A DNA stretch of 64,000 nt from Candidatus Stramentimicrobium fermentans (lineage in GTDB: Bacteria > Atribacterota > Phoenicimicrobiia > Phoenicimicrobiales > Stramentimicrobiaceae), in contig JAAYOB010000002.1 in NCBI GenBank assembly GCA_012520575.1, positions 5,264-69,263 of the forward strand. Reading direction: 5' to 3'. A program made the position numbers and the translations under genes. The notes under the pieces were generated by a model. That model made no database searches, was not told the origin of the DNA, and saw only the letters and a program-made list of their open reading frames with translations. Each line of letters opens with the position of its first letter. Position 1 is the stretch's first letter. Positions 8,878 to 60,277 of this stretch are shown here, one piece after another.

Positions 8878-9171
8878 AGTCGTTATTATAGTATATTACT
8901 ATTCTCCCTGCAAGCCTAACTTGCTCAGCTCAAAGCCCTACTGGTTACTACTATTAAGAGCATAGATCAAAGAGTATAGTTTTGTGTATTAGATACTACT
9001 AATTTGAGAACAACCGATATATACCAAATTAGAGAGAGAAACAATTGTTTAATTTGTCGGACATTTAGATGAGTTGTTTTTAAGCCTATTCTTTAGACAA
9101 TTAAGAGAAAATATGCTAAAATTTGGGCAATCTATTTATCTTTTTGCTTTTTAAGACAGAGGAGAACGAGT

Positions 9172-18848: not shown

Positions 18849-20141
18849 CTACCCTTCAGAACAAGAAAATCCTTCCCTTTGTTTTTTCCTTTTTATACGG
18901 GCTAAGCGATGATCTAAATCCTTTCGCCACTCTGTTTTCACGCTCCCGGAAATGTTTTCCCGGTTTAACCTATGTAAAGCCTCTTCAACAATACTTTCAG
19001 CCTGACCATAGTCCTTCTTTTGGTGTTCATAATATTTTGCCAATTCTTCATAGGGATAGGGCGAAAAATCTCTACTTAAAGAGATAATATCACGCCAGGC
19101 GGCCTCTGCTTTGTCCCATTTTAATTGCTTCTTATAGGCAAAGGCACACAATCTTAAGGTTTCCACTGCCTCTTCATCAGAGAGGTCGCATTTTAAGGCT
19201 TCCTCATAACATTTGCTGCTATATTGAAAATCCCTATGTCCTTCAAATATTTTACCGATGCTGCATAAGTCTAATGCTGACTTTACCATCTCTAAGGGAT
19301 CTTCTAATACCTGACCAATCCTGGTAGCGAGAAGCACCAGGGAAATAATGTCCTGCTGATTGTGGGCAAATACCGGTTTAAGGGGCCGGGCATCTTTATC
19401 CAGCAGATAGCGAAAATAGACTTGGGGAATAAGATAACCGGGTATATCTCCGTTTCTCCTAATTTTCAAAACTTCCTTCTCAATATTTTGCAGGGTGCAG
19501 TCCTGTAGCCTCCTCTTCCATAGTCTGCGAGTGGGGAAGAGTAAATCAAGATGGTGAGAGGTATTCAAGTGAAAGGGCTGCCGCGTCATAATGTAGCGGG
19601 TCTGCAATAGAGGGAAATCATAACTTTTCCCATTATAAGTAACCAATATCTTAAAGCCCTGACCAAAAAGCTGGTTAACCCCCCATAAGAGGGCTTCCTC
19701 TTCATGGTAGTCCGACATAAAATATTGTCTGATATGGAACTCTTCGCCTCTAAAAAAGCCGAGGCCCAATAAAAAAATATACGTGCCGGAACCTCCCGCC
19801 AATCCGGTCGTTTCGGTATCAAAAAAGAGCATCTCTTCTAATTTGAACTCTTCGCCTCTCCTATTAAATTGCGGCAACCAAAGATGCAATCCGGGGGTAA
19901 AATAGCGTTGTATGTCGGATAAGGAGTTTTCACCAAAAGAGGTATCCGGGGTAATGATTCTTTCCGCATAGAAACAATTGCCATGCGGTGTCTCAATGGT
20001 ATTTCCGGGTACAATTTCCGAGACAGATGACTTATTGTTACTTTTTTTAGAAAAAGTATTTTTCTGATTACGGTTATTGCTGATTTGCTGTACTTTTTTC
20101 TTCAGACTCTCAATCTGCTCCAGTCGGTCACGTAAGTTCAT
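18849..20141 (-). CDS. RNase H-like (DEDD-type) exonuclease with C-terminal TPR region, YprB/MrfB-like
   Basis: FFDTETTGL DEDD motif. TPR-like C-terminus. Sits directly downstream of, and 2 nt from, the YprA-type helicase, as in the B. subtilis yprA-yprB (mrfAB) pair. Confidence 0.55.
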   Translation of the reverse strand: MNLRDRLEQIESLKKKVQQISNNRNQKNTFSKKSNNKSSVSEIVPGNTIETPHGNCFYAERIITPDTSFGENSLSDIQRYFTPGLHLWLPQFNRRGEEFKLEEMLFFDTETTGLAGGSGTYIFLLGLGFFRGEEFHIRQYFMSDYHEEEALLWGVNQLFGQGFKILVTYNGKSYDFPLLQTRYIMTRQPFHLNTSHHLDLLFPTRRLWKRRLQDCTLQNIEKEVLKIRRNGDIPGYLIPQVYFRYLLDKDARPLKPVFAHNQQDIISLVLLATRIGQVLEDPLEMVKSALDLCSIGKIFEGHRDFQYSSKCYEEALKCDLSDEEAVETLRLCAFAYKKQLKWDKAEAAWRDIISLSRDFSPYPYEELAKYYEHQKKDYGQAESIVEEALHRLNRENISGSVKTEWRKDLDHRLARIKRKKQREGFSCSEG

Positions 20142-20143
20142 AA

Positions 20144-27420: not shown

Positions 27421-27744
27421 CTATGGTTTATCAATAAATTTACTTGAATTTATTTTTATAATGATGTTTTCTATTAAATTTTGTCCAATTTCCTGGTTTA
27501 ATATATTGATAATTTCACCTTTTCTAATAACTATTTCGCTTGCCCAGATATGGTTTTTAACCATTAAAAAAAGATTATTATTCTGAATTTTCAGTGGTTT
27601 GGTATTTAGGGCAATTTCAGGAGGAAGAATATCTTCCCAAGAATCAAAAAAATTGTAACCATCGACTCTCTGTGTCCAATTGCGCGATTTAAAAAATGAT
27701 TGGACAATCTCATTGATATGTCTTGGTTCCTTACTCTCCATCAT
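27421..27744 (-). CDS. DUF721-domain protein (DciA/RemB-like) downstream of recF
   Basis: 107 aa. The pattern W..I..P.I...T.P..I.N..L.V.V..S.WA.E......EI...LN matches DUF721. Overlaps the recF stop by 14 nt. Same position as Rv0004/dciA and B. subtilis yaaB. Confidence 0.55.
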   Translation of the reverse strand: MMESKEPRHINEIVQSFFKSRNWTQRVDGYNFFDSWEDILPPEIALNTKPLKIQNNNLFLMVKNHIWASEIVIRKGEIINILNQEIGQNLIENIIIKINSSKFIDKP

Positions 27745-28882
27745 TCTGCATTGTCCCGTCCTTTATTCGGAATATTTTTGAGGAGGAATTAATATTATAT
27801 TGTGTCAAGTCTTCTATATCTATACTGGTAATAAAAGTTTGCAGAGGCCTTTCTTTGATTATTTTCATTAAAAATAATCTTCTTTCTGAATCAAGCTCTG
27901 ATAAGACATCATCTAGCAGCAAGGGGGGGTACTCACGGTCTTTCTCCTTCAATAGTTCCAATTCGGCCATTTTCAGAGCTAACACTGCGGTGCGCTGCTG
28001 CCCCTGGGAACCATAAATACCTAAATCCACTAAATTGTTCATAATAAAGTAATCATCTCGATGGGGACCGACAGTGGTTACTTTAAGTCTTAAATCTTGT
28101 TCTTTGGCCTGGCTGAGTTTCTGTTCAAAAATATTTCCTATCTCCTCATTATCTTCTGAAAAAGATGTTAAAATATTACTGTTATATTTTAGTTTTAAAA
28201 CTTCCTGGTTTTTAGTCATCAATTGATGTATGATTTTAACTTTTTGATTCATTATTTGTAAGGTTTTCACCCTATACCGGATAATCATGCTTCCTATTTC
28301 TACTATTTTCTGGTCCCAGACAGTTAAGTGTTGCTCTAAATTGCTTTTACTTTCTATGCTCTTTAACAACATATTTCTCTGGAATAGTACGCGGCTATAG
28401 TCCCTTAGGTAGCGTTCATAGATAGGATTAAGATTAATAATCACCTCATCCAAAAATTTTCTTCTAACAGAGGGAGAGCTTTTAATGATTTGCAGGTCTT
28501 CTGGTGTAAATATTACCGGGGTGAATCTTTTGGTGAGCCAGGATTTTTGCCGGTATTTTTTATTTACTTTGATAATTTTTTTGGCTTTTTTAGGCAGGGA
28601 ATTTATCCGGTCAATGTCTTGGAGTAGAATATTAATTTGAAATTTTTCTTTATTTTTACTTACTTCCCCTAAAATATAACTTTCTTTTTCAGACCAGTTT
28701 ATTAAATTGGAATCCTCTTTGGCTCGGTAACTATTTCCTCTTAGTAAGGTATAAATCGATTCAATAACATTTGTTTTACCTTGGGCATTATCGCCTATGA
28801 AAATGTTTAAGGAGCTATGAAAATTAAAAGAAGCATCTTTAAAATTTCTAAAATTAATTAATCTAATCTTATCAACATTCAA
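27731..28882 (-). CDS. recF: DNA replication and repair protein RecF
   Basis: N-terminal Walker A GDNAQGKTN. SMC-like signature and Walker B near the C-terminus. dnaA-dnaN-recF synteny. Confidence 0.85.
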   Translation of the reverse strand: MNVDKIRLINFRNFKDASFNFHSSLNIFIGDNAQGKTNVIESIYTLLRGNSYRAKEDSNLINWSEKESYILGEVSKNKEKFQINILLQDIDRINSLPKKAKKIIKVNKKYRQKSWLTKRFTPVIFTPEDLQIIKSSPSVRRKFLDEVIINLNPIYERYLRDYSRVLFQRNMLLKSIESKSNLEQHLTVWDQKIVEIGSMIIRYRVKTLQIMNQKVKIIHQLMTKNQEVLKLKYNSNILTSFSEDNEEIGNIFEQKLSQAKEQDLRLKVTTVGPHRDDYFIMNNLVDLGIYGSQGQQRTAVLALKMAELELLKEKDREYPPLLLDDVLSELDSERRLFLMKIIKERPLQTFITSIDIEDLTQYNINSSSKIFRIKDGTMQNDGE

Positions 28883-28944
28883 ATAATTTTTCCTTCCTGT
28901 ATTATCCTCACCTACGCCCTTATAGGAGTGTTGTCCTCACTGGA

Positions 28945-30117
28945 TTAACTCATTCTTACCGGCATCAAAACATAGCTATATTGTTCTTCTTTAGCAACTG
29001 GATTAATCATAGCAGGATTTAGATTTTCATTTAATTTTATCTCAGTCTGATCTGTTTTAATAATTCTTAAAACATCATTTATATAACGGGAATTGAAGGA
29101 TATCTCAATATATTCCCCATCTATTAAGCAGGGAATCTGTTCACTGGCATCCCCTATATCCGGTGTGTTTACCTTTAAAATTAATTCTCCCCTATTTTCT
29201 CCTACCTGCTGAGAATAAATATGTGTTTCTAATCTGATAGTATTAATATCTTCTGTAACAAATAAACTGATTCTTTCCATTCTTTGTCTAAATTCTTCGG
29301 TATCTATTTTAATAGTAGTTTTAAATTGTTGAGGTATTATTTGGTGGTAATCAGGATATTGGCCATCGATAATGCGGGAAAATAACCTAATTCTATTCTT
29401 TTCCCCTTCCGAATTTAAAGTAAAAATAACCTGTTTTTCACCTAAATCTATTTCCACTATATTGTCATCCTCAAAGCTGAGTAATTTAAATAATTCAGAT
29501 AGTGCTCTCTGGGGAATAATAACTTCAAATTGGCTGTCTGTATCAATCCTATTCTTACCGGTTAATTTAATTTTTTTTAAGGCCAGACGGTGGCTGTCGG
29601 TTGCTACAATCTCTATTCCTTTTTCTACATTTTTAAATAAAATACCATTTAGAAAAGATCTGCTCTCATCCCTAGAAGAAGCAAATACCACCTCTTGTAT
29701 GGTCTCTTTTAATATTTTCTGTGTTAGTTTAATCTTTACTCTGCTTTGAACATCAGGAAATGGTGAAAAATCTTCAGCAGAAAACCCTAATATTTTATAG
29801 TTAGACATATCTTCTTCTTTAATATGAATTATATTATTTTTATCTACCTCAATCTCTATATTACCTTCCGGAAATTTTCTGATTAAATCGCTGAAAATTT
29901 TATTGGGAATAACTACCGCACCATGTTCTATAATCTGTGCGGAAATATAACAATCAATTCCTATTTCTAAATCGGTTGAAAATAAGTGAATTTTATTATC
30001 TTTAGTCACTTCAAAAAGAATACCGTTATATATAGGTAAACCAAGTTTGGTAGAAATGGCCTTCTGTACTATTTGAGTTCCGTTTTCTAAACTTTTTTGA
30101 GAACAGATAACTTTCAT
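28945..30117 (-). CDS. dnaN: DNA polymerase III beta sliding clamp
   Basis: 390 aa with three-domain clamp organisation. Directly downstream of dnaA. Confidence 0.9.
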   Translation of the reverse strand: MKVICSQKSLENGTQIVQKAISTKLGLPIYNGILFEVTKDNKIHLFSTDLEIGIDCYISAQIIEHGAVVIPNKIFSDLIRKFPEGNIEIEVDKNNIIHIKEEDMSNYKILGFSAEDFSPFPDVQSRVKIKLTQKILKETIQEVVFASSRDESRSFLNGILFKNVEKGIEIVATDSHRLALKKIKLTGKNRIDTDSQFEVIIPQRALSELFKLLSFEDDNIVEIDLGEKQVIFTLNSEGEKNRIRLFSRIIDGQYPDYHQIIPQQFKTTIKIDTEEFRQRMERISLFVTEDINTIRLETHIYSQQVGENRGELILKVNTPDIGDASEQIPCLIDGEYIEISFNSRYINDVLRIIKTDQTEIKLNENLNPAMINPVAKEEQYSYVLMPVRMS

Positions 30118-30463
30118 TTTTTTTCTCCCATTCTTTATAGTTTGCTTAATATTTTTGAAATATATTAAATATAAGAATAAGTAGTATTAGTAGTAATAAT
30201 GTTAATAAAGTGAATAAATATTTTAATCTCATCTAATTTAACAGTTAAATATGTGGATATTATTCTTAATAATTATATCTTTTATTAACAATATTCACAT
30301 AACCATATTTATTATTATATTAATTTATTTACTTAAAAAACGAAGAAATTATTAATAAGTGTTATATTATAATATTGAAGGTATATTTCAAATTACAAAT
30401 TATTTTCTTACCCATTAAAAAGATATTAATAATTATTCATTATGAGCAAAATATATTTATTGT
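30118..30463. promoter_or_regulatory. AT-rich dnaA-dnaN intergenic region with DnaA-box-like sites (possible oriC half / DUE)
   Basis: More than 80% AT. Contains TGTGGATAT and ATATTCACA (one mismatch each to TGTGGATAA/TTATCCACA). Confidence 0.4.
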
Positions 30464-31843
30464 TTAAGAACTATTTTTAATCTTATTTATTATTCTATCT
30501 ATATCCAATTTTAGTTTGTTATCTTTTAACAGCTGTTCTCTAATCTTATTGCAGGAGTGAAGAACAGTGGTATGGTCTTTCCCTCCAAAAGAGGCACCAA
30601 TCACAGGGAGGGAGTTATCGGTTAATTCCCGGGACAGATACATGGCAATATGACGGGCAGTTACTATATTTCTAGTTCTTTTTTTGGATAATAATAAACC
30701 CATTTTGATATTAAAAAATTCTGCAGTGTGTCTTTGAATTAAAGGGATGGATATCTCTTTTCTCTCAATAGGAATAAGGTCTTTTAAGATTTGCTGGGCT
30801 TGGGTAAAGTCAACCTCTTTTTGACCTGTTAAATCTAAATATGCCTTCAATTTAATTAAAGCACTTTCCAATTGACGAATATTAGATGGCTTTTCGGCGA
30901 TATGATTTATAATATCATCAGAAACCTCTAATTGATAAAATTCTGACTTCTTTTGTAATATAGCAATCCTGGTTTCAAATTCAGGCATCTGAATATCAGT
31001 GATAAGACCCCATTCAAATCGGGAAACCAAACGGCTCTCTAAATTGGCGATATCTTTAGGTGGTTTATCCGAAGTAATAACAATCTGTTTTCCGGCATTG
31101 TATAGCGTATTAAAGGTATGAAAAAACTCTTCCTGAGTTCTTTCCTTCCCTACTAGGAACTGTATATCATCAATCAATAGGACATCATAATTACGATATT
31201 TTTCTCTAAAGGATACTGTGGCATCTTCTTTAATAGCGTTAATTAATTCATTGGTAAACTTTTCAGAAGAAATAAAAGCAATATTTATAGAATGAAGAGA
31301 ATTTTTGTTAACAATATAGTTTCCAATGGCATGCATAAGGTGTGTTTTACCTAATCCTACCCCACCATAGATAAAGAGGGGATTATAAGATTTTCCGGGA
31401 GATTGAGCTACTGCCAAGCTGGCAGCCTGGGCTAATCGGTTAGAGTCCCCTACCACAAAATCATCAAAAGTATATTTGCTATTTAAACCGGTTTCTCGAT
31501 ATTGTTTCTCCAGGATATCTTTATCCGCCGCCTTGTTCTTCTTCCCCCCGGCAATTAAATTTGTGGACGACTTCGGGCTTTTGATTGTATCTATACTAAA
31601 TTTAATGTTAATATCCCCCTCTAGCCCCAGTTGTTCCATAAAAATATTATTGATGAAATGGATGTGGTTTTTTTCCAGCCATTCTTTACAAAACTTATCG
31701 GGTACCGCAAGATGTAATTCATTATTTTTAAAGTCGATGAGTTGAATTCTGGAAAACCAGGTATTAAATATCTGCAGGCCCACTCTGTCCCGAATAATAT
31801 TTAGAGCTTCCTCCCATTTTTCATCTAATCGGTGATAGTTCAT
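30464..31843 (-). CDS. dnaA: Chromosomal replication initiator protein DnaA
   Basis: AAA+ Walker A GGVGLGKTHL, Walker B LLIDDIQ, domain IV DNA-binding C-terminus. Confidence 0.9.
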   Translation of the reverse strand: MNYHRLDEKWEEALNIIRDRVGLQIFNTWFSRIQLIDFKNNELHLAVPDKFCKEWLEKNHIHFINNIFMEQLGLEGDINIKFSIDTIKSPKSSTNLIAGGKKNKAADKDILEKQYRETGLNSKYTFDDFVVGDSNRLAQAASLAVAQSPGKSYNPLFIYGGVGLGKTHLMHAIGNYIVNKNSLHSINIAFISSEKFTNELINAIKEDATVSFREKYRNYDVLLIDDIQFLVGKERTQEEFFHTFNTLYNAGKQIVITSDKPPKDIANLESRLVSRFEWGLITDIQMPEFETRIAILQKKSEFYQLEVSDDIINHIAEKPSNIRQLESALIKLKAYLDLTGQKEVDFTQAQQILKDLIPIERKEISIPLIQRHTAEFFNIKMGLLLSKKRTRNIVTARHIAMYLSRELTDNSLPVIGASFGGKDHTTVLHSCNKIREQLLKDNKLKLDIDRIINKIKNSS

Positions 31844-34752: not shown

Positions 34753-34905
34753 AAAGCACTTATTAGAGACCGCCAAGGAGTATGCCTTAAAAAGGGCTTA
34801 ATAAAGATTACCGTTAAATAACAGTTAAAGCAAGACTATCTACAATAATAAAAACAAGTTTATAAAAATACATAATTATTTTGTTAATAATTTAAATAAG
34901 AAATT

Positions 34906-34939
34906 GCAGATACCCACGGGCAAACTCGTGGGTATCTGC
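34906..34939. repeat. Perfect 13-bp inverted repeat (GCAGATACCCACG-n8-CGTGGGTATCTGC) in the jag-mnmE spacer
   Basis: Seen directly. No U-tract follows, so not a canonical terminator. Lies ~50 nt upstream of the mnmE ATG. Confidence 0.4.
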
Positions 34940-34987
34940 GCAAAAGAAGATGCCGGTAAGAGACTAATAGATAAAACGCGATGTAAG

Positions 34988-36421
34988 ATGAAAACCAAGC
35001 CATTCTGTAATAAGAATAAAGAAAATGATACCATCGTTGCCATATCTACACCACAAGGTATTGGCGGTATTGGAATTGTTCGTATCAGCGGTCCCCGTGC
35101 CATTGAGATTGCCGGTAAAATATTTCGCTCTAAAGGGAAAATAGAGATGAAACCCGGAGCATTTTACAGTCACCGCATCTATTATGGAACAATTGTTTGC
35201 CCGGTCTCAGATTCTGTAGTAGATGAGGTTTTACTGACCGTGATGCGCAAGCCGAAGACTTATACCAGAGAGGATGTGGTGGAAATCAATTGTCATGGCG
35301 GCTATTTTGCGGTGAATAAAGTGCTGGAAATGGTCCATAAACTGGGAGCTAGGATCGCGGAACCGGGAGAATTTACCAAATTAGCTTTTTTAAGTGGACG
35401 AATAGACTTAAGTCAAGCGGAAGCAGTTATCGATGTCATTAATGCCGGTAATGAAAAAAGTTTGTGTTCTTCCTTAAAACATCTTTCCGGGGGCTTAAAG
35501 AACAAAATAGCCGAGTTAAAGAACCGTATAATCAGTTTAAATGCCGGGATTGAAGCAATGCTCGATTTTCCGGACCAGGGTCTTGGCGATATTGACAAGG
35601 AGAAAATAAAAAAAATACTAAAAATATGTCTCCGAGAAGTAGATAAATTGTTGAATACCGTAAAATACGGAATGCTTATCAAAGAAGGAATCGGCACCAT
35701 TATTTTAGGAAAGACCAATGTGGGAAAATCCAGCCTTTTTAACCTATTATTAAAGAAAAATAAATCAATAGTCACTCCATTACCGGGAACAACAAGAGAC
35801 ATCATTGAGGGAACTATAGACATTAAAGGACTTACTTTTAATTTAATTGATACTGCCGGAATCAAAACTCCCGAAAATATTGTAGAAAAGATAAGCTTAC
35901 AGAAGGTAAACGAGCAAATGGAATTTGCCAGTCTGTTCTTAATAATGTTTGATATTAGTCAACCGCTTGATTCTCACGATCTTAACCTCATTAAAAGAAT
36001 AAAATCTTTCCATAATAGTAATATCATCAAAATATTTATTTTAAATAAGACTGACCTTCCGCCAAAGTTGGACCAATCCAAATTAGTGCATCTGCTTGGA
36101 GGAGATAAATTTGTTAAAATATCCATTAAAAAAGGGATAGGCATCAATGCTTTATTAGAAAATATAGCTCAGCATATTTTATCCGACCTCTATATACCTG
36201 AGGAAGGACTTGTAATAAGCAATAAAAGGCACCAAGAATATTTACTTAAAATACAAAACTCTCTATCCAGTCTTATTCAAAGCTTAAGGGAAGGGATGCC
36301 CATTGATTTGGTAACCCTGGACCTTAGATACATTATCAATCAACTGGCTAATATTACCGGCGAATCTTATGACGATGAAATAATCAAAACTATATTTTCC
36401 CGGTTCTGTATCGGTAAATAA
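34988..36421 (+). CDS. mnmE: tRNA modification GTPase MnmE (TrmE)
   Basis: N-terminal DTIVAISTPQGIGGIGIVRISG, G-domain GKTNVGKSS, C-terminal CIGK. ATG 34988 was chosen over the track's upstream extension. Confidence 0.85.
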   Translation: MKTKPFCNKNKENDTIVAISTPQGIGGIGIVRISGPRAIEIAGKIFRSKGKIEMKPGAFYSHRIYYGTIVCPVSDSVVDEVLLTVMRKPKTYTREDVVEINCHGGYFAVNKVLEMVHKLGARIAEPGEFTKLAFLSGRIDLSQAEAVIDVINAGNEKSLCSSLKHLSGGLKNKIAELKNRIISLNAGIEAMLDFPDQGLGDIDKEKIKKILKICLREVDKLLNTVKYGMLIKEGIGTIILGKTNVGKSSLFNLLLKKNKSIVTPLPGTTRDIIEGTIDIKGLTFNLIDTAGIKTPENIVEKISLQKVNEQMEFASLFLIMFDISQPLDSHDLNLIKRIKSFHNSNIIKIFILNKTDLPPKLDQSKLVHLLGGDKFVKISIKKGIGINALLENIAQHILSDLYIPEEGLVISNKRHQEYLLKIQNSLSSLIQSLREGMPIDLVTLDLRYIINQLANITGESYDDEIIKTIFSRFCIGK

Positions 36422-37573: not shown

Positions 37574-38335
37574 ATGGGTAAAATAATAGTAATCGGCAAT
37601 CAAAAGGGCGGAGTGGGGAAGACCACTACCGCCATTAATTTGAGTGCTTTCTTAGCCCTGGAGGGAAAGAAGGTATTATTGGTTGATATTGATCCACAGG
37701 GCAATGCCAGCAGTGGTATAGGAGTGGAACGTTCTAAAATTAAGAAGACTATCTACGATAGTTTGATTAATCAAGTTCCTATACAGGAAGTTCTGATTCC
37801 CAGCCAGATTAAAAATCTTGATGTTTTGCCATCCACACTGCAGTTAGCTGGTGCTGAAATTGAATTAGTAAATTATATTTCTCGAGAAAACCGTTTAAAA
37901 CAACTTCTTCGAACCATTAGAGAGGATTACAATTATATTATTATTGACACCCCTCCTTCTCTAGGGCTTCTTACCTTAAACGCCCTGAATGCCGCCGATT
38001 CCGTTATTATTCCGGTGCAATGTGAGTACTACGCTCTGGAAGGTATCGGGCAATTGCTCAATACCATAACGCTGGTAAAAGAAAATTTAAATCCTAATTT
38101 AGCCATAGAGGGGATTTTGTTGACCATGTATGATGTTCGAAATAATCTCTCGAAAGAGGTAGCAGAAGAGATCGAAAAACATTTCCACGGCAGTGTTTTC
38201 CAGTCGGTTATTCCTCGTAATGTGCGTTTAAGTGAGGCGCCCAGCTATGGCCAGCCCATTGTTCTCTATGAGGCAAAGTCCCGGGGTGCGCAAGCCTATC
38301 ACAAGTTAGCCGGGGAGGTAATAGCTAATGGCTAA
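37574..38335 (+). CDS. soj: Chromosome partitioning ATPase ParA/Soj
   Basis: Deviant Walker A GNQKGGVGKTTT. 253 aa. Confidence 0.85.
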   Translation: MGKIIVIGNQKGGVGKTTTAINLSAFLALEGKKVLLVDIDPQGNASSGIGVERSKIKKTIYDSLINQVPIQEVLIPSQIKNLDVLPSTLQLAGAEIELVNYISRENRLKQLLRTIREDYNYIIIDTPPSLGLLTLNALNAADSVIIPVQCEYYALEGIGQLLNTITLVKENLNPNLAIEGILLTMYDVRNNLSKEVAEEIEKHFHGSVFQSVIPRNVRLSEAPSYGQPIVLYEAKSRGAQAYHKLAGEVIANG

Positions 38336-39170
38336 AAAGGGTTTAGGAAAAGGATTGGAATCGATAATACCAATCTCTAGTATACAGGATAGGTCCTACG
38401 TGATGGAGGTGGAGATTGAACAGCTAACCCCCAATTTATATCAACCACGACAGGCTTTTGATCAGGAAAAAATGAATGAACTAAAGGAGTCCATAAGAGC
38501 ACATGGTATTATTCAGCCCATTATTGTTCGAGAATCAGCTCAAGGGTACGAAATAGTAGCCGGTGAAAGGAGATTGAGAGCTGCCCAAGAACTGGGCATG
38601 AAAACCATACCGGTTATTATTCGCCAATTCAATAATCTCAAGACTTTAGAAGTAGCCTTAGTGGAGAACATACAAAGAGAAGACTTGAATCCAATTGAAC
38701 AGGCGTTTGCCTTTAAAAGATTAGTAGAAGAATTTAAACTTACTCATCAAGAATTGGCTGCCATAACCGGGAAGAGCAGATCTTTTATTACCAATACTCT
38801 GCGCTTACTTAATTTAGATGAATGGGTCAGGGAAAAGATAGCTTCTGGTAAGATTACCTCCGGACATGGCAAGGTGCTGTTAGGCATAGAAGAAAAGCAG
38901 ATTCAAAAGGAATTCGGACAAAAAATAATGGAACAGGAGTTATCCGTACGAGATTCGGAAAGATTAGTGGAGCGTTGGCTAAAAATAAAAGATAAAAAAT
39001 TCTCTTACAATAAAAGCAAGATCCAATATTATCCTGAAATAGAGAAAAAGTTGAGAACCAAATTAGGAACCAGAGTAAATGTTAAATTTAGCGGGAAAAA
39101 AGGAAAGATTACTATTGAATTTTATAGCAGTGATGATTTGAACAGAATTTCCGGCTTTATTCTAAATTAA
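38328..39170 (+). CDS. spo0J: Chromosome partitioning protein ParB/Spo0J
   Basis: ParB box GERRLRAA, HTH, C-terminal dimerisation region. Start overlaps parA by 8 nt. Confidence 0.85.
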   Translation: MAKKGLGKGLESIIPISSIQDRSYVMEVEIEQLTPNLYQPRQAFDQEKMNELKESIRAHGIIQPIIVRESAQGYEIVAGERRLRAAQELGMKTIPVIIRQFNNLKTLEVALVENIQREDLNPIEQAFAFKRLVEEFKLTHQELAAITGKSRSFITNTLRLLNLDEWVREKIASGKITSGHGKVLLGIEEKQIQKEFGQKIMEQELSVRDSERLVERWLKIKDKKFSYNKSKIQYYPEIEKKLRTKLGTRVNVKFSGKKGKITIEFYSSDDLNRISGFILN

Positions 39171-53467: not shown

Positions 53468-53629
53468 ATGAAAAACAAGGCTATAGACAAAGAAGTAGGC
53501 ATAGAATTACTTGAGAGTGAATCAAAAACAGAAGACTTGATACTGTTTGACAATACCGACAAGCCTTTTTTGGTCTTGTATTTATTCATATTTATCTTTG
53601 GCATTATTTTGACTGTAATAAGTATTTAG
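53468..53629 (+). CDS. Small (53 aa) single-TM protein preceding the symporter gene
   Basis: GAGGTGG RBS. Hydrophobic C-terminal helix. Not in the ORF track. Tentative. Confidence 0.3.
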   Translation: MKNKAIDKEVGIELLESESKTEDLILFDNTDKPFLVLYLFIFIFGIILTVISI

Positions 53630-53645
53630 GTTAGATAATCACACA

Positions 53646-55115
53646 ATGACAATGCCGATACAAATCATTATTTTAATACTATATTTTATCTTAATAATAT
53701 TCCTGGGAATATTAGCTATGAAAAAGGTGAAAGGCTCTGATGACCTTTTAGTAGCTGGTAGGAATTTAGGAATGATGTATGTTTCTGTTTCTATTGCTGC
53801 CGAATACATGGGAGGATTGGGTACAGTGGGAACGGCAGAGGTAGCCTTTAGCCAGGGAATGGGAGTAATCTGGTATCATATAGCCTCAGCCTTTGGATTA
53901 ATACTGTTTGGAGTAGGGTTTGCCCACTATTACCGCAAATACAATGTCATAACAGTACCGGAGTATCTCTACTTTCTCTATGATATAAAGACCTGGAAGG
54001 CATCTTCCTTTTTAAATGTTTTTGCTTATTGGATTTTTACCGTTATTCAGATGACTGCTATGGGCTCGCTAGTTGCTAGCGTAACCGGATTTGATTTAAA
54101 ATGGAGTGCTTTCATCTGCGGAATTGGTATGACTGTCTATCTCCTAGCAGCCGGTATGTGGTCGGTTGCTTTTACCAGTGTAGCTTTTATGATTACCATA
54201 GGTACAGGCATCCCACTCGCTTTTTGGTGGGTCATGAAACATGAGATGCCCCTTCTGGCAACCTCAGGCGGTATTTCCGGTTTTGCCGGTTTGGCCAATG
54301 CACTTTCCGCCGCAGGTCTTGATGCAGCACATCTAATGAATCCTTATAGTTTAGGAGGAATGGCAATACTGGGATATTTCTTAGGCGGAGTGTTAGGGAT
54401 ACCCGCAGCACAAGCAACTATTAATTATTCATTTGGTGCCCGCAACTGGAAAATAGCGAGATTGGCACCGGTGTTAGCAGCTATTCTGATACTGCCGCTA
54501 AGTATCTGGACCGGTTCTATGGGACTTTTTGCCAGAGCAGCAGACTTGACTACCAATCCGAAGTTGGCACTCGGAGCTACCTTGATGCATATCAATCCTA
54601 TAATTGGAGGCATTGGTATTGCCGGCATATTTGCCGCACTGGTTTCTACCGTGGCTGGCATATTATTTGGCTGTGCCTCTATTATGGCAAAAGATATCTG
54701 GCAAAGATGGCTGCACCCTAATACCGATGACAAATACTTAGCCAAGTGGACCAGATTATGGATACTCATTATTGGGGTTACCTCTGCTTTCGGAGCAATG
54801 AGTCTGCCCAAAATACTACACCAAGCCTATTTTGTCTATTCCATCAGAAGTGCTCTCATGATAGTAGTAGCCTTCGGCTTATGGTGGAAGGCAGCCCATC
54901 CTAATGCTGCTTATTGGAGTATGATAGTGGCATTGGTAGGGGGAACCATGTATCAATTCAATATTCCTATTAACTTTCAGTCATATTTTCATTTACATAT
55001 TGCGATCTGGTGTGGACTCCTAAGCTTTATTACTTTCATAATTGTCAGTTTTTTTTCTAAATGGACTTCCCAAACAGCCGGAGAGTTGCCGCCAGCCTAT
55101 GTAAAACAGAGATAA
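53646..55115 (+). CDS. Sodium:solute symporter family (SSF) transporter
   Basis: About 13 TM helices. SSF N-terminal pattern GRNLGMMYVSVSIAAEYMGGLGTVG. Confidence 0.8.
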   Translation: MTMPIQIIILILYFILIIFLGILAMKKVKGSDDLLVAGRNLGMMYVSVSIAAEYMGGLGTVGTAEVAFSQGMGVIWYHIASAFGLILFGVGFAHYYRKYNVITVPEYLYFLYDIKTWKASSFLNVFAYWIFTVIQMTAMGSLVASVTGFDLKWSAFICGIGMTVYLLAAGMWSVAFTSVAFMITIGTGIPLAFWWVMKHEMPLLATSGGISGFAGLANALSAAGLDAAHLMNPYSLGGMAILGYFLGGVLGIPAAQATINYSFGARNWKIARLAPVLAAILILPLSIWTGSMGLFARAADLTTNPKLALGATLMHINPIIGGIGIAGIFAALVSTVAGILFGCASIMAKDIWQRWLHPNTDDKYLAKWTRLWILIIGVTSAFGAMSLPKILHQAYFVYSIRSALMIVVAFGLWWKAAHPNAAYWSMIVALVGGTMYQFNIPINFQSYFHLHIAIWCGLLSFITFIIVSFFSKWTSQTAGELPPAYVKQR

Positions 55116-55124
55116 GGAGAAAAA

Positions 55125-55307
55125 ATGAAAACTTTTCTTTTCCCCGAATTTCTTAAATTAGACTTGATAATCTGGGCAATATTAGTAATTATTTTTGTCC
55201 TATTTACCTGGCATATCCATAGTTTACCCTATGATGCCATCGATAAGGTCAAAGCACAGGCCATTGAAAATAAAAAACGATTAGGAATTAAAATCTATAA
55301 AATATAA
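55125..55307 (+). CDS. Small membrane protein (60 aa) coupled to the symporter
   Basis: AAGGAGA RBS. One TM helix. Confidence 0.3.
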   Translation: MKTFLFPEFLKLDLIIWAILVIIFVLFTWHIHSLPYDAIDKVKAQAIENKKRLGIKIYKI

Positions 55308-55707
55308 TATATTTTTAACATTATTTCTTAAAACCTTACTTTTCCCAAATAGATACAGAAACTGAAATAATTGTCTAGAAGTAAATGGATATTGGAAAGG
55401 GGAACAAAAATTATTGCCGGACTTGCCTTTGGAATAATTCATACGGCTACCATTAGGGAATATATACTAGTGACATTGCTATCAGCTCTGATAGGAAAGG
55501 CATTTTTAATTTCAAATTAGAAAAGAAAAAATAAAAACTTTGCAAAAGCTGATTGAACAAAGTAAACAATAATTGGCTTAGTACATACTTTATATCTACA
55601 AAAGGAGATGAGTCTATTTGGCAAAAACGGAGAAATATTTTAGTATTTAGCTACTTTGTATGATACTTTTAGCTTTTCCCACCTATAATTAAGGAGGAAA
55701 GGAAGCT

Positions 55708-56040
55708 ATGAAAAAAAGTTGTAAAAAGCAATACATTTTAGTAACCCATATTATCAAAAAAGAAAACGAACAATATGTAGCTACTTGCCCAGAATTTGAT
55801 GTATCTTCTTTTGGCGATACTGTGGAAGAAGCTAATAATAGTTTGAGAGAGGCAATTTTGTTATATTTAGAAGGTATAGAAAGCTTAAATATTCTAGATC
55901 AAATTTTCAAAGAAAAAGCCATTGTAACTTATGAAAGAAAACCTAAATCTGTAACCAGTGATTATAGATTTGCAGATGATCTGGATGGCCAGCCTTTTGT
56001 TACTAAAAAGTCTCTAAATGTTGCTTTATGCAATTCTTAA
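55708..56040 (+). CDS. hicB: HicB-family antitoxin
   Basis: N-terminal YVATCPEFDVSSFGDTVEEANNSLREAILLYLEG, matching the HicB/UPF0150 fold. Strong RBS AAGGAGGAAAGG. Confidence 0.6.
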   Translation: MKKSCKKQYILVTHIIKKENEQYVATCPEFDVSSFGDTVEEANNSLREAILLYLEGIESLNILDQIFKEKAIVTYERKPKSVTSDYRFADDLDGQPFVTKKSLNVALCNS

Positions 56041-56050
56041 TAAAATGTAA

Positions 56051-56274
56051 AATTTCCCCATAATAACTGGTGAAGATTTAATAAGTAGACTATGCAAAGC
56101 TGGTTACATAGTATTAAGAACGAAAAGTTCTCACACTTTCTTGACTTTGCAGGCCACCCTGAAGTGTCTACTGTAGTAAAAAATACCTCTAAAGATATTC
56201 CCCAAGGAACATTGGCTTCTATTAGAAAACAATTAAGATTAACTCGAGAAAAATTTATCGAGATTATTTCTTAA
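56051..56274 (+). pseudogene. hicA: hicA toxin remnant (frameshift plus premature stop)
   Basis: HicA N-terminus (GEDLISRLCKAGYIVLRTKSSHTF) is in one frame and the C-terminus (HPEVSTVVKNTSKDIPQGTLASIRKQLRL) in another, joined at CACAC. Only an ATG-TAA precedes the N-terminal part. Confidence 0.5.
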
Positions 56275-56498
56275 TAATGGGTATTGTTAAAAACTAAGAT
56301 GAATATAGAGTAATATACTACTAACTATATAATACATTTTTATTTGATGATTAACTTTATAATCTATGAAAATGATTTCTAAGTATACCTAAATCCGTAC
56401 ATGATGAAACATTAATATCAAAAATTGTTAATACAATAAGAATTCTTCATTCAACGAAATTATTCAAATAAAGGTCTTTATAAATTCAGGAGGGGGAA

Positions 56499-59030
56499 AT
56501 GCAGGCAATAAATAAAAATTTTTTGCAATTTCTAGAGGGAGTGGACAAAAGGTTTTCAATTCCGGTCTTTCAAAGAAATTATGATTGGCAAAGAGAGCAT
56601 TGCGAACAATTGTTTAATGATTTACTGGACATAATAAAATTTAATTTCCGCAGCCACTTTTTAGGGTCACTTGTGTATGTATTTGATGAATCAAAACCAG
56701 GTTTTGAATTGTTAATTATTGATGGGCAACAGAGAATCGCAACCTTATCTATTTTACTTTTAGCGCTGCATAATCTATTAGAAAACAATGAGATTCAATC
56801 TCGCTCTGAATCATTAAGCGAACAGATTAGAGATACTTACTTGATTGACAAATATGCTCAAGAAGGTAAGAAAATAAAGTTCGAACCGGTCAAAGAGGAT
56901 AATGAAGCCTATCTGAAATTGTTTAAAAATAATAGCGAAGAGTTCATTAAAAATTCTAATATTACTATCAATTATCAATATTTTGTTGATAGGATTAAAA
57001 GAAGCAATTTGTTAGCTGATGATTTATTTGAGGCAATTAAGAAACTAACTATAGTAGATATTAGGTTAGATAGTAATCATGATGATCCACAGTTAATATT
57101 CGAAAGTCTGAATTCTACTGGTTTAAATTTAACCCAGTCCGATTTAGTTAGGAATTTTATCCTAATGGGGAAGAATAAGAGCGAACAGAAAAGATTGCAT
57201 GAAGATTATTGGCTCATTATAGAAAAAAATACAGGAGATCAGGTCGATTCCTTCGTAAGGGATTACCTTACTCTCAAAGAAAGAATTATTCCTAACAAAA
57301 ATAAAATCTACATTAGCTTTAAGAAGCATGTAAAAAAAGAATATTCCAATGATGATATCGAAAGTTTACTAAAAGAGTTAAAAAGATATTCCCAATACTA
57401 CCAAAGAATTATTTTCCCATTAGATGATAAATCCAAGATAAATGTTGTCTTAAAAAGAATTAATAAATTAGATATTACTGTATCTTATCCCTTTTTATTG
57501 GAAGTTTTTAGCTATCACGATGACAAGGTTATAGATGATGAAACACTTGTTAATATTTTAGATACCATAGTATCTTTTGCTTTTAGAAGACTAATATGTA
57601 ATGTACCAACCAATGCCCTAAATAAGATGTTTGCTACTATCGGAAGAGATATCCAAAAATATCCTGACTTCAAAGTAAATTATTTTGAAATATTCAAGCA
57701 TATTTTGATTAATAAGAAATACAGTCAAAGATTTCCAACAGATGAAGAGTTTTCAGAAATACTGGTCACTCGGGATATCTATAATCTGCAAAGTAAAAAT
57801 AAATTACATCTATTAGAGAGGTTAGAGAATTATGACAATAAGGAAAGAGTCAAAGTAGAAGAACTGCTGAATGAAGGGGATTTAAATATTGAACACATTA
57901 TGCCCCAAACACTGACTCCGAGTTGGAAGGCTGCCTTGGGAGACAACTGGGATGAAATATATAATAAATATTTGAACACTCTTGGCAATTTGACACTTAC
58001 CGGATACAACACCAAGATGAGCAATAAGCCTTTTTTAGAGAAAAGAGATATGGAAAAAGGGTATGAAGATAGCAGCCTTGCTCTCAATAAATATCTCCGC
58101 ACCCTAGAAAATTGGAATGAGGAGACAATTATTGAAAGGGCAAATCAACTAACAAGCACTGCTTTAAAAATCTGGACATACCCCAAAACGGAATATAAGG
58201 GACAGATAGAAGAATCAAATAAATTTATCTTATCCGATGACCACGATTTTACCGGAGACAAAATAGCGTCCTTTACCCTTTTAGGACAAGACTTTTCAGT
58301 AAACAGTTGGAGGGATTTTTATATCAAACTAGCGCAAAATTTAATCGAAATTAACCCTAATATTTTTGCTGATTTTTTAAAGGATAAGAGGTTTATTGAA
58401 GAGAGAAAAATAATTTCTGCTCAAGCCGAATCTTTGAGCAATCCTTTTGAAATTGCAGAAGGTATTTTTTTAGAAACACATTTGAGTGCCCAGTCTATTG
58501 TTAATAATGCTTTGTTGATTTTAAGTAAATATGAAATTGATGAAGATGGAGTAGCAGTAATCTTGAGTAATAAGAATAGCCAAGAACTAGCAGATTTCCA
58601 AAAGAAAAGAATAAAATTTTGGGGAGGATTATTAGAAATAAATAAAGATAGAATAAAATATTTCAAGAAAAATACAAGTTTTATACATTATGACCTCTAT
58701 AGCGGAACCGGGATAACAAGGTGTTCTTACTTTTATCGTATTAAACAAAAAAGCGGTACGGTGGGATTGTCTATTGATACGTATGACAAAGAGAAAAATG
58801 AGCATATTTACAACAAACTATTAGAAAAGAAAAACGAAATAGAAAACGCCTTTGGAGAAAAACTTGAATGGTTTGACGGTGAAAAGACTCAGTTTAAGTC
58901 TATCTATAAAGAATATAAATATACTGGCCTTAAAAATGAAGACAAATGGCCGGCTTTACAGCAAGACATGGCTGATGGCATGGCAAGATTTACTGAAATA
59001 TTAGATGAATACCTTGCAGAATTTAAATAA
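56499..59030 (+). CDS. GmrSD-like type IV restriction protein (DUF262 ParB-like NTPase + DUF1524 His-Me nuclease) with long C-terminal extension
   Basis: DUF262 hallmarks FSIPVFQRNYDW and DGQQR. DUF1524 hallmarks NIEHIMPQ and LGNLTLTGYNTKMSNK. 843 aa, about 280 aa beyond the nuclease domain. Confidence 0.7.
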   Translation: MQAINKNFLQFLEGVDKRFSIPVFQRNYDWQREHCEQLFNDLLDIIKFNFRSHFLGSLVYVFDESKPGFELLIIDGQQRIATLSILLLALHNLLENNEIQSRSESLSEQIRDTYLIDKYAQEGKKIKFEPVKEDNEAYLKLFKNNSEEFIKNSNITINYQYFVDRIKRSNLLADDLFEAIKKLTIVDIRLDSNHDDPQLIFESLNSTGLNLTQSDLVRNFILMGKNKSEQKRLHEDYWLIIEKNTGDQVDSFVRDYLTLKERIIPNKNKIYISFKKHVKKEYSNDDIESLLKELKRYSQYYQRIIFPLDDKSKINVVLKRINKLDITVSYPFLLEVFSYHDDKVIDDETLVNILDTIVSFAFRRLICNVPTNALNKMFATIGRDIQKYPDFKVNYFEIFKHILINKKYSQRFPTDEEFSEILVTRDIYNLQSKNKLHLLERLENYDNKERVKVEELLNEGDLNIEHIMPQTLTPSWKAALGDNWDEIYNKYLNTLGNLTLTGYNTKMSNKPFLEKRDMEKGYEDSSLALNKYLRTLENWNEETIIERANQLTSTALKIWTYPKTEYKGQIEESNKFILSDDHDFTGDKIASFTLLGQDFSVNSWRDFYIKLAQNLIEINPNIFADFLKDKRFIEERKIISAQAESLSNPFEIAEGIFLETHLSAQSIVNNALLILSKYEIDEDGVAVILSNKNSQELADFQKKRIKFWGGLLEINKDRIKYFKKNTSFIHYDLYSGTGITRCSYFYRIKQKSGTVGLSIDTYDKEKNEHIYNKLLEKKNEIENAFGEKLEWFDGEKTQFKSIYKEYKYTGLKNEDKWPALQQDMADGMARFTEILDEYLAEFK

Positions 59031-59049
59031 ACTATAAAAAATTTTATAA

Positions 59050-59235
59050 ATGGAGGAAACTAAAATGCCAAACAGAATATGCGACTCATGTGGAAAACTA
59101 AAAGATGTGCAGGGTGGTAAAACCTGTGAAAACGGTCACTTCATCTGCAAGGATTGCGTCTATGCCGGTATAGGGTTTATGGGATTTGGAAGTGTCTTGA
59201 CCACCTGTCCTATTTGCAAAAAACCATTGAGATAA
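59050..59235 (+). CDS. Small Zn-ribbon protein (two CxxC pairs)
   Basis: CDSCG...CENGHFICKDC...CPIC. GGAGG RBS. 16 nt downstream of the GmrSD-like gene. Confidence 0.4.
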   Translation: MEETKMPNRICDSCGKLKDVQGGKTCENGHFICKDCVYAGIGFMGFGSVLTTCPICKKPLR

Positions 59236-59584
59236 TTCCAAAATAAACTGCAGTATTATGTGTGAGAGTCAGATTTTGAATTATCAGTTTTGCGATATTT
59301 CAAATCCTGATTCCATAAGAACTTTGTGCAAACCTTGTATATAATAGAAGATTTTTTGTTCTGCAATATAGAGAAGTTTGCCCTGTCCCTATCATGAGAA
59401 TTATTTTGTTCAGATTTTTATCTGAGGCATTAATACTTTTTCATATATATTGTTGATGAAGCGATTCGATTATTTGTCAGGCAGTCAACAAAAATGTATA
59501 CTATCTATTGCAGATACAGCAGAAGTTACTTTTTCTTTATTGTACCAGCAAATAATATTAATAATATTTAAAAAAGGAATTTAT

Positions 59585-60277
59585 ATGAAAAATAACATTG
59601 GTAATGATTTAAAAATTCCACCGATTGGCAGAAAACCCCTGAATGTAAAGGTTTATGAAACCCTTAAAAAATCAATTATTAATGGTACATGTCAACCAAA
59701 TACAAAATTAAGTGAATCTGAATTAGCTAAACAAATGAATGTTAGTCCTACTCCTGTGAGAGAGGCATTTCGCCGATTAGCTGCGGAAGGATTAGTGAAA
59801 ATTATACCATGGAAGGGTGCTGTTGTTAGTAGTTATTCATTAGCAGACATTAAAGATACATATCAATGCAGAGAAGCATTGGAGGTATATATGACTCGTT
59901 TAGCGGTACCCAATATCGATAAAAAAGGTATAAGCAAGCTGCGAATGCTGCTAGAACAATCGAAAGAAGCAAAAAATGAGACAGAATTAGTTGAAATTAA
60001 TTCTAGAATTCACACTACTATTACGGATTATGCAAATAATAGCAAAATGAAAAGCCTTTTGGATTCCCTGAGAGATGTCATTATTCACGATCGTAATCTA
60101 TCTGCATATAGTTCTGATCGTCGGATTAAGATATATGAAGAACATGTAGAATTAATTAATGCAATAGAAGAGAAAAATATACCAAAAGCAGAGGAAACAA
60201 TGAGAAAGCATATCATTAATGGATACAAGTATATTGTTGAAAAAATTAAGTTTTCAAATAATTTAAATAGAAACTAA
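59585..60277 (+). CDS. GntR-family transcriptional regulator (FadR/FCD subfamily)
   Basis: wHTH LSESELAKQMNVSPTPVREAFRRLAAEG plus an FCD domain. ATG 59585 with an AAAAAAGGAA RBS. Confidence 0.8.
   Translation: MKNNIGNDLKIPPIGRKPLNVKVYETLKKSIINGTCQPNTKLSESELAKQMNVSPTPVREAFRRLAAEGLVKIIPWKGAVVSSYSLADIKDTYQCREALEVYMTRLAVPNIDKKGISKLRMLLEQSKEAKNETELVEINSRIHTTITDYANNSKMKSLLDSLRDVIIHDRNLSAYSSDRRIKIYEEHVELINAIEEKNIPKAEETMRKHIINGYKYIVEKIKFSNNLNRN

Follow-up and report, generated by a model that had tools for sequence, protein, structure and literature searches.

We analysed a stretch of 64,000 nucleotides from Candidatus Stramentimicrobium fermentans (contig JAAYOB010000002.1), hereafter referred to as the window, for a small islet of genes centered on an 843-residue protein that resembles the GmrSD-type restriction enzymes. 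Four elements, all on the plus strand, compose this islet: a hicB-like open reading frame (ORF), a hicA remnant, the ORF for the 843-residue protein, and a small cysteine-rich ORF. A symporter gene precedes the islet, and the gene for a GntR/FCD regulator follows it; 3′ of the latter lie the genes for a NicX/M29-like peptidase and then for the Opp permeases. These flanks were verified by ORF and Pfam annotation, and the location given in the first-pass annotation, an insert between the symporter and the peptide-utilisation genes, was thus borne out. As judged from its domains, the 843-residue protein is an uncharacterised Atribacteria member of a known GmrSD subfamily.

The 843-residue enzyme and its C-terminal region

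Both core domains of the enzyme scored far above the respective Pfam cut-offs. The DUF262 (GmrSD_N, PF03235) ParB-like NTPase domain was matched with E = 2.4e-34 (119.6 bits against a cut-off of 33.2), and the DUF1524 (GmrSD_C, PF07510) His-Me finger nuclease domain with E = 1.9e-26 (93 bits against 23). The former carries the sequence IIDGQQRI at residues 73–80, the DGQQR portion of which (residues 75–79) corresponds to positions 56721–56735 of the window; the latter carries NIEHIMPQ at residues 463–470, the E465-H466 pair of which corresponds to 57891–57896. In an alignment of 13 orthologous sequences, D75, G76, Q77, Q78 and R79 are invariant, as are E465, H466, N497 and N504. The window enzyme, the 843 codons of which are uninterrupted, keeps every column that is invariant in this family alignment. 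Between the two domains, residues 222–412 were modelled by AlphaFold2 (AF2) as an all-helical linker, with moderate confidence only.

The profile searches placed the enzyme among known defence nucleases. The top match in PADLOC was to the model Orf5, over the full length (E = 6e-151); the meaning of this label was not traced in the literature searched. The HEC-06 model (PDLC04157) matched residues 15–560 over positions 18–556 of its 558-position profile (E = 1.2e-66, 223 bits), and mREase_IV gave a match of partial coverage (E = 1e-29), while the match to SspE was weak (67 bits, against the 223 bits for HEC-06). In a profile search of the PDB, the closest solved relative was DndI (9JFL; E = 2.4e-22 over residues 17–561), and SspE came next. 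When the whole-protein AF2 model, built from 13 sequences and poor in quality (predicted local distance difference test score, pLDDT, of 53.6), was submitted to Foldseek, SspE was the sole credible match; the other matches (Arp2/3 subunits, type III secretion chaperones and PprA) had E > 0.1 and were regarded as noise. With respect to BrxU, no model of this protein appeared among the best 25 of the 29 PADLOC matches to the enzyme, and no genes of a BREX locus, which would be expected around a BrxU, were found in the window flanks or on the same-species contigs. It was also found that no cognate methyltransferase accompanies this single-polypeptide enzyme. The Pfam domains above their cut-offs and the PADLOC matches confirmed the DUF262–DUF1524 architecture of the GmrSD/SspE/BrxU type that had been proposed for the 843-residue protein from the sequence. 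GenBank already holds the enzyme as NLL61234.1, under the name DUF4268 domain-containing protein. Exactly this sequence is encoded by 14 contigs that stem from several samples, its nearest metagenomic relatives are 60–66% identical to it, and the members in gut Clostridia are 34–39% identical.

Besides the full-length profile match, the essential residues Q79/R80 and E471/H472 of HEC-06 correspond to Q78/R79 and E465/H466 in the window enzyme. In HEC-06, the DGQQR residues and E471/H472 were reported to be essential for defence (Payne et al. 2024, bioRxiv 10.1101/2024.01.29.577857), and the protein (HEC-06_Bact) was reported to be modification-dependent (10.1101/2025.02.28.640651). The two proteins differ in length: the HEC-06 models end at ~560 residues, whereas the window enzyme has 284 more residues, including DUF4268.

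This additional portion, noted at first as about 280 extra C-terminal residues and regarded as unusual, proved to be composed of a segment of ~140 residues shared within the family and of the Pfam domain DUF4268 (PF14088; E = 1.5e-20, 74.1 bits against a cut-off of 27). The tail is also matched by the PADLOC model PDC-S11 (E = 4e-27), and PHROGs gave no match for it. The shared segment, residues 560–700, is common to a very large GmrSD subfamily of ~680–700 residues without DUF4268 (81–83% of the query covered), with examples in Clostridioides difficile and Clostridium septicum; residues 560–703 gave tblastn matches in 111 loci and, when Pfam and the PDB were searched, no match. A homology search with residues 560–843 alone returned two proteins, a number set by a limitation of the word index. 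The form with all three domains is widespread: it was found in ~14 clusters at 60–66% identity and, at 34–39% identity, in 99 independent loci from many phyla (Lachnospiraceae, Oscillospiraceae, Clostridia, Faecalibacterium, Akkermansia, Caldisericota, Flavobacteriia, Leeuwenhoekiella, and others). DUF4268 was present in all of the 56 diverse family members scanned. The DUF4268 part of the AF2 model has a pLDDT of 64–88 and a layout of alpha-beta3-alpha2-beta2-alpha, and a profile of the C-terminal region built from 56 sequences found no credible match in the PDB, the best being an aldehyde dehydrogenase with E = 0.034.

The DUF262–DUF1524–DUF4268 architecture was described in 2015 (Machnicka et al., PMC4619093), and DUF4268 was later given as a usual C-terminal domain of His-Me finger group 3, with DNA binding as its predicted function (Jablonska et al. 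2017, PMC5714182). The window enzyme shows no architectural difference from these GmrSD proteins: the domain order is identical, the linker is helical, and one polypeptide occurs without a cognate methyltransferase. MdgA and MdgB, two modification-dependent nucleases with a role in defence, also contain DUF4268, which was proposed there to be a substrate-recognition module (bioRxiv 10.1101/2025.02.28.640651). According to the same study, both nucleases protect from T4 and not from T4-GT7, a mutant with unmodified cytosine, and purified MdgA was much more active in degrading the DNA of T4 than that of T4-GT7. As described in that study, the two proteins have other nuclease domains, and they share with the window enzyme the accessory domain alone.

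Table 1 Features in and around the islet (positions in the 64,000-nucleotide window)
Feature	Position	Strand	Basis or remark
SSF-family symporter	53646–55115		left flank of the islet
60-residue hydrophobic ORF trailing the symporter	55125–55307		last ORF before the islet
Left junction of the variable site and hicB upstream region	55352–55707	none	homology to contig L177 stops at 55351
hicB-like antitoxin gene, intact, 110 residues	55708–56040	+	PHROG 497, GenBank name
hicA pseudogene	56045–56274	+	three-frame translations, alignment with contig L178
2.9-kb block: enzyme gene, 160-nt upstream region and mini-gene	56337–59254	+	blastn against contig L182
843-residue GmrSD-like type IV restriction enzyme (probable) with DUF4268 tail	56499–59030	+	Pfam, PADLOC, GenBank
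DUF262 / GmrSD_N ParB-like NTPase domain, residues 11–221	56529–57161	+	PF03235
DUF1524 / GmrSD_C His-Me finger nuclease domain, residues 413–552	57735–58154	+	PF07510
Family-typical C-terminal extension, residues 560–703	58176–58607	+	shared with the ~690-residue GmrSD subfamily
DUF4268 domain, residues 704–839	58608–59015	+	PF14088
IS1595 insertion site in contig L182, AAAAATTT, 8-bp target duplication	59037–59044	none	8-bp overlap of the blast blocks
GGAGG ribosome-binding site of the mini-gene	59053–59057	+	read from the sequence
Mini-gene: 56-residue RING-like (C3HC4-spaced) zinc protein	59065–59235	+	homologue alignment, ribosome-binding site
GntR/FCD regulator	59585–60277		right flank of the islet

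The small zinc protein and its linkage to the enzyme

The small cysteine-rich ORF behind the enzyme gene, hereafter referred to as the mini-gene, starts at 59050 in its longest reading, while the ATG at 59065 gives 56 residues. Because a GGAGG sequence lies 6–9 nt 5′ of the equivalent ATG in all homologues, the start is most likely at 59065; the gap to the enzyme stop is then 34 nt, and the spacing of 16 nt stated earlier requires correction. The product had been described as a double-CxxC zinc ribbon of 56–61 residues. The gene is real and its length of 56 residues falls within this range, but the number and spacing of the ligands point elsewhere: there are eight, arranged as C6-x2-C9-x11-C21-x3-H25-x2-C28-x2-C31-x16-C48-x2-C51. 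The RING consensus is C-x2-C-x(9-39)-C-x(1-3)-H-x(2-3)-C-x2-C-x(4-48)-C-x2-C, and the mini-protein thus fits the C3HC4 spacing of RING and prokaryotic RING domains (zf-C3HC4, Prok-RING).

Twelve mini-protein sequences with 61–84% identity aligned without difficulty. C6, C21, H25, C28 and C48 are invariant among them, and the other ligands are nearly so. In two homologues (P0129 and P0130), the changes C9 to D and C31 to H occur together; in a cross-brace arrangement, and only there, these two positions would share a zinc site. The predicted fold is nearest to the RING/ZZ cross-brace domains. No curated RING profile exceeded its threshold for the mini-protein (Sina_RING, 18.1 bits against a cut-off of 29.3), and distant members also scored below threshold (zf-C3HC4_3, 23.8 bits, and Prok-RING_4, 17.6 bits, against cut-offs of 27; zf-RING_5, weak). 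None of the profiles in Pfam-A, NCBIfam, PHROGs and PADLOC matched the family above threshold, and no genes of a ubiquitin-like system were seen in any mini-gene neighbourhood. When 1.84 billion representatives were searched exhaustively with a profile, only 120 relatives were recovered, nearly all of which are stand-alone proteins of 45–115 residues; none of the 120 is fused to a GmrSD-sized protein. Four longer members of 150–300 residues (P0247, P0280, P0288 and P0291) are fusions in which a DUF4145 or a hemerythrin domain is joined to a C-terminal RING-like module, and no consistent partner domain exists among the longer members.

In GenBank, the mini-protein is held as the hypothetical protein NLL61235.1. 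The 90% cluster containing the 56-residue peptide (59065–59232) is represented by an unrelated 371-residue protein, which could mislead automated annotation. The proteins of 371 and 379 residues in this cluster were considered as a possible parent of the mini-protein and rejected: they are glycosyltransferase-like and have no cysteine-rich segment, and their membership is a clustering artefact.

To examine the linkage among the elements, we compared the mini-protein, HicB and the two halves of HicA by tblastn with 175 loci, with neighbourhoods of ±6 kb. In the 165 independent GmrSD loci, which include the 61–66% identical orthologues, homologues of the mini-protein, HicB and HicA were not found at all; the matches were confined to the mini-protein's own homologue loci and to two loci (L001 and L002) that correspond to the window locus itself. 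Likewise, in none of 94 three-domain loci did a small double-CxxC ORF start at most 300 nt 3′ of the enzyme; among 56 shorter GmrSD loci, one had such an ORF, which looks like a spurious ORF of high G+C content. What frequently adjoins the enzyme family is type I restriction–modification (R-M): an HsdR-like gene lies nearby in at least 36 of the 99 three-domain loci, and the closest orthologues of the window enzyme adjoin HsdR.

The converse analysis gave the same picture. None of the 16 loci with mini-protein homologues (61–84% identity) has a GmrSD gene. Their contexts are diverse: MerR and VWA genes (L008), a plasmid- or virus-like cluster (L009), a sigma factor and a CHAT protease (L011), and unannotated genes (L012–L015). 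The closest independent homologue (P0157, 84% identity) lies between an IS200-type Y1 transposase and a Ser/Thr kinase (L186–L193); in the 24 contigs read, of which 8 places are shown, the mini-gene is ~200 bp 3′ of the transposase and 5′ of the large kinase gene. These contexts hint that the mini-gene tends toward mobile surroundings. The DNA homology to the other copies covers only 59035–59247, a unit of ~215 bp that carries its own ribosome-binding site and starts 5 nt after the enzyme stop. The mini-gene has a G+C content of 0.42 and thus differs from the enzyme gene, with 0.31.

One contig, however, shares both genes with the window. Contigs of the same species were collected by exact matches to the 60-residue ORF and to the mini-protein, and were aligned to the window by blastn. 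Contig L182 (ERZ2647956 NODE_2665) matches window positions 56337–59044 at 98.9% and 59037–59254 at 98.2%; both flanks are different, and nothing is shared by blastn outside the 56337–59254 block. Thus, the enzyme gene and the mini-gene travelled together at least once. The two matching parts are separated in L182 by an IS1595-family element (8383–9207) with GGTAAT...ATTACC terminal repeats, which encodes a 252-residue transposase (Zn_ribbon_IS1595 and DDE_Tnp_IS1595 domains). This insertion sequence (IS) sits in the 34-nt spacer and splits the enzyme gene from the mini-gene; because it was inserted there, the tight spacing of the two genes is dispensable in the L182 copy. With regard to the neighbours flanking the L182 enzyme, tblastn found none shared with any other locus; L004 and L182 each have an upstream gene of 418 codons.

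It is conceivable from these data that the enzyme and the 56-residue zinc protein constitute a functional pair, in which the latter would serve as a regulator, an inhibitor (‘immunity’ protein) or a specificity factor. The two genes lie on the same strand at a short distance with no terminator-like site between them, and a block of exactly these two genes recurs in L182 in different surroundings. The counts given above, namely no mini-protein homologue in the 165 GmrSD loci, no small double-CxxC ORF in the 94 three-domain loci and no GmrSD gene in the 16 mini-protein loci, nevertheless argue against a two-gene system, as do the restriction of the DNA homology to the 215-bp unit, the difference in G+C content, the IS1595 element lying between the genes in L182, and the lack of fusions among the 120 relatives. 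We regard such a pair as unlikely. The mini-RING protein might also be a lineage-specific portable modulator of the GmrSD–DUF4268 enzyme, acting either as an inhibitor until infection or as a specificity factor. This would explain why the two genes moved as a 2.9-kb cassette between two Atribacteria contexts, and, in a broader form of the same reading, the ~120 stand-alone prokaryotic mini-RINGs, which tend toward mobile surroundings, might constitute a new class of small regulators that bind other proteins; we consider it quite unlikely all the same, and it is similarly doubtful that the joint movement reflects a real functional partnership.

The mini-protein is not a conserved functional partner of the enzyme. 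The first-pass annotation had stressed a tightly coupled zinc partner and had called the combination not a standard described system. The former does not agree with the absence of conserved linkage, and the latter was not upheld either, the enzyme tail matching known family domains and the mini-gene showing no conserved linkage to GmrSD.

hicB, the hicA pseudogene and the variable site

The hicB product matched PHROG 497 (‘HicB-like’) with E = 5.9e-8 and is named HicB family antitoxin in GenBank (NLL61232.1). The match to the Pfam family HicB_lk_antitox was below the cut-off (E = 1.7e-4, 22.2 bits against 27), the matches to HicB proteins in the PDB were weak (E = 0.25–0.45), and no DNA-binding tail of the ribbon-helix-helix or helix-turn-helix type was recognisable. 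Despite the sub-threshold Pfam score, the PHROG match and the GenBank name are consistent with the HicB antitoxin proposed at first and support it, although less strongly than the Pfam match supports HicA. Four nucleotides downstream of the hicB stop begins hicA, which was proven to be a pseudogene in the window. Its codon 2 is TAA (56048–56050), which is TCA in contig L178, and one nucleotide between 56149 and 56150 is deleted relative to the L178 allele. The latter is an intact ORF of 77 codons and matches Pfam HicA_toxin with E = 1.2e-13 (51.4 bits against a cut-off of 27). The early view of a decayed HicA beside an orphaned antitoxin is therefore correct. As compared with the HicAB type II toxin–antitoxin systems, the adjacent hicB-like and hicA genes and the bona fide HicA of L178 are alike, while the order of hicB before hicA, the inactivated hicA and the HicB score under the Pfam cut-off are points of difference.

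The strain comparison clarified how the islet is composed. In contig L177, the left flank is common up to 55351 (99.5%), and unrelated transporter genes follow. In contig L178 (GCA_040364315.1, JBEFFD010037055.1, 6279–12183), the flank is 99.6% identical to the window and a 200-bp extra segment occurs at window position 55403; then, 55403–56319, comprising hicB and hicA, is 96% identical, and the sequences diverge at 56319. Beyond hicBA, L178 encodes type I R-M, namely HsdR (with an EcoEI_R_C domain), HsdS and HsdM, instead of the GmrSD enzyme. An exact look-up of the GntR gene, made for the right boundary in the type I R-M strain, returned the window's own arrangement alone. A recombination junction thus exists between 56319 and 56337, and because the breakpoints of L178 and L182 fall there, the hicB–hicA pseudogene module is separable from the enzyme. 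Three separable modules occupy the variable site: hicB with the hicA pseudogene, the GmrSD gene, and the mini-RING gene. Their combination is a strain-level mosaic and no new defence system.

The exact hicB sequence occurs on 45 contigs although the hicA of the window is dead, and hicB lies ~460 nt upstream of the enzyme gene on the same strand. From these facts, one could suppose that, once HicA was lost, HicB came to serve the nuclease as its regulator or antitoxin, giving a toxin–antitoxin-like HicB–GmrSD unit. However, the L178 hicBA (96% identical, with hicA intact) stands beside type I R-M, the junction at 56319–56337 splits the modules, the L182 enzyme occurs without hicB, and no HicB homologue was found in the 165 GmrSD loci. 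A unit of this kind is extremely improbable; the hicBA module is tied to the chromosomal site and not functionally to the GmrSD enzyme.

The hicA pseudogene could also be taken, together with the L182 enzyme, which was called as four fragments with an adjacent IS, to mean that the entire islet is decaying cargo without a current function. The assembly of L182 has a coverage of only 2.5x and also splits unrelated genes, as in L177; the fragmentation may be an assembly error, and we do not read it as decay. In the window itself, the enzyme gene is uninterrupted with all of the family-invariant columns kept, and, as noted above, an identical protein is encoded by 14 contigs of several samples. 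Decay of the whole islet has, in our judgement, little probability.

The G+C content of 55352–59254 is 0.31, as compared with 0.375 ± 0.036 in windows of the same size (5.5th percentile), and the downstream peptide cluster is as AT-rich as the islet. Thus, the description of the insert as AT-rich stands, but only to a moderate degree, which the peptide cluster and the mini-gene (0.42) temper further. No tRNA gene was found in the 64-kb window, no integrase at the islet, and no convincing direct or inverted repeats flanking it; a classical island was accordingly rejected for this segment. It is by the strain comparison, in place of these marks, that the segment is recognized as variable DNA. 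Promoter and terminator scans of the region gave matches at the background level; one promoter-like site at 55660–55689 agrees with the consensus at 10 of 12 positions, and such matches are no commoner in the region than in shuffled sequence. No Rfam family was matched in 55000–59700 at E ≤ 1.

Several features of the surroundings were also observed. Genes for recF, dnaN, dnaA, mnmE and parA/parB-like proteins are present at 27731–31843 (minus strand), 34904–36421 and 37574–39170, so that the window spans the chromosomal origin of replication; the dnaA–dnaN–recF and parAB-like genes therefore place the variable site ~24 kb from the origin region and dnaA. At 18849–22432 (minus strand), a gene for a 762-residue helicase (DEAD, Helicase_C and MrfA zinc-binding domains) is followed by one for a 430-residue protein of the RNase_H_2 superfamily, and together the two resemble a DNA repair pair of the MrfAB type. 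Small hydrophobic ORFs lie on both sides of the SSF symporter gene, one of 53 residues at 53468–53629 and the other being the 60-residue ORF of Table 1; the latter is exactly conserved in 76 index blocks and is probably a small symporter-associated membrane peptide.

Function of the enzyme and meaning of the locus

The core domains of the enzyme are shared, including DGQQR, with DndI (9JFL) and SspE (6JIV), the nickases that sense phosphorothioate (PT). It may be asked, then, whether the enzyme is an effector of this type, which would use PT marks made by dnd or ssp genes elsewhere to discriminate self from non-self. DndI as the best PDB profile relative, followed by SspE, and the weak PADLOC matches to SspE are in line with this idea, as is a cysteine desulfurase gene in the window with weak similarity to DndA/SspA. 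The gene in question (13777–14967, minus strand) encodes a class-V aminotransferase/cysteine desulfurase matched by the DndA/SspA models with E ~1e-11 to 1e-12 over ~100 residues; it is probably a housekeeping enzyme of the IscS/NifS type. The match is partial and generic (44 bits), and no dndBCDE or sspBCD genes were found in the scanned parts of the window (ten large ORFs by Pfam and ten by PADLOC) or in the extended flanks, a scan that did not cover the immediate neighbours of the desulfurase gene. DndI and SspE, by contrast, are encoded beside the modification genes that they need, and DndI is toxic without PT (PMC11662687). Both also lack DUF4268, and DndI targets unmodified DNA. Moreover, the homologues of the window enzyme adjoin type I R-M genes and not dnd or ssp, and the HEC-06 match (223 bits) is much stronger than that to SspE (67 bits). 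A PT-sensing effector is hence improbable here.

We consider it probable that the enzyme is a single-protein, stand-alone type IV (modification-dependent) restriction endonuclease of the GmrSD type, belonging to a HEC-06-like branch and located at a strain-variable defence hotspot. What was obtained here as its basis is the domain membership, the intact catalytic motifs, the widespread architecture, the frequent type I R-M neighbours and the absence of dnd/ssp genes nearby. GmrSD-like genes are reported to lie often inside type I R-M or Hma systems (bioRxiv 10.1101/2024.01.29.577857), an association that the relatives of HEC-06 also show; a defence role is supported because of this published embedding and the HsdR-like neighbours found here. 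By analogy with GmrSD, BrxU, HEC-06 and MdgA/B, from which the modification dependence, the control by nucleoside triphosphate (NTP) and the role of DUF4268 are inferred, the enzyme may work as follows. The DUF262 ParB-like domain with its DGQQR motif would bind and hydrolyse NTP and thereby gate the enzyme, and the DUF1524 His-Me finger, with E465-H466 and conserved Asn residues, would cut DNA. The C-terminal extension and DUF4268 would provide extra recognition of DNA or its modification, and would set which modified phage DNA is attacked. The hicB–hicA pseudogene pair would be a decaying type II toxin–antitoxin pair standing beside whichever defence cargo fills the site. The mini-gene would have landed 5 nt after the enzyme stop as a separate small gene, and is probably co-transcribed with the enzyme in this genome.

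Several points weigh against this assignment to the stand-alone type IV enzymes. The closest solved relative, DndI, attacks unmodified DNA, so that membership in the family would not guarantee modification dependence. For DUF4268, the role of which is a proposed one, the PDB profile search found no solved homologue, and the whole-protein AF2 model has the low pLDDT given above. Furthermore, the enzyme gene and the mini-gene co-occur as one block in two contexts, which an accidental juxtaposition does not require. Lastly, 64 kb of the genome are visible, and partner genes at a distance are possible.

The locus offers a clean natural example of a defence hotspot near oriC, where either GmrSD or type I R-M stands beside the same hicBA, with the junctions within ~20 bp. 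The combination flagged at first as a non-standard system need not be pursued as a new defence system, and the novelty that remains lies in the mini-RING family and its single cassette movement with the enzyme. For the enzyme family, DUF4268 is a domain without a solved structure or a proven role, and a compact and intact Atribacteria representative adds diversity for testing the modification reading proposed for it. The mini-RING family is a minor curiosity, a RING/ZZ-like fold predicted in prokaryotes.

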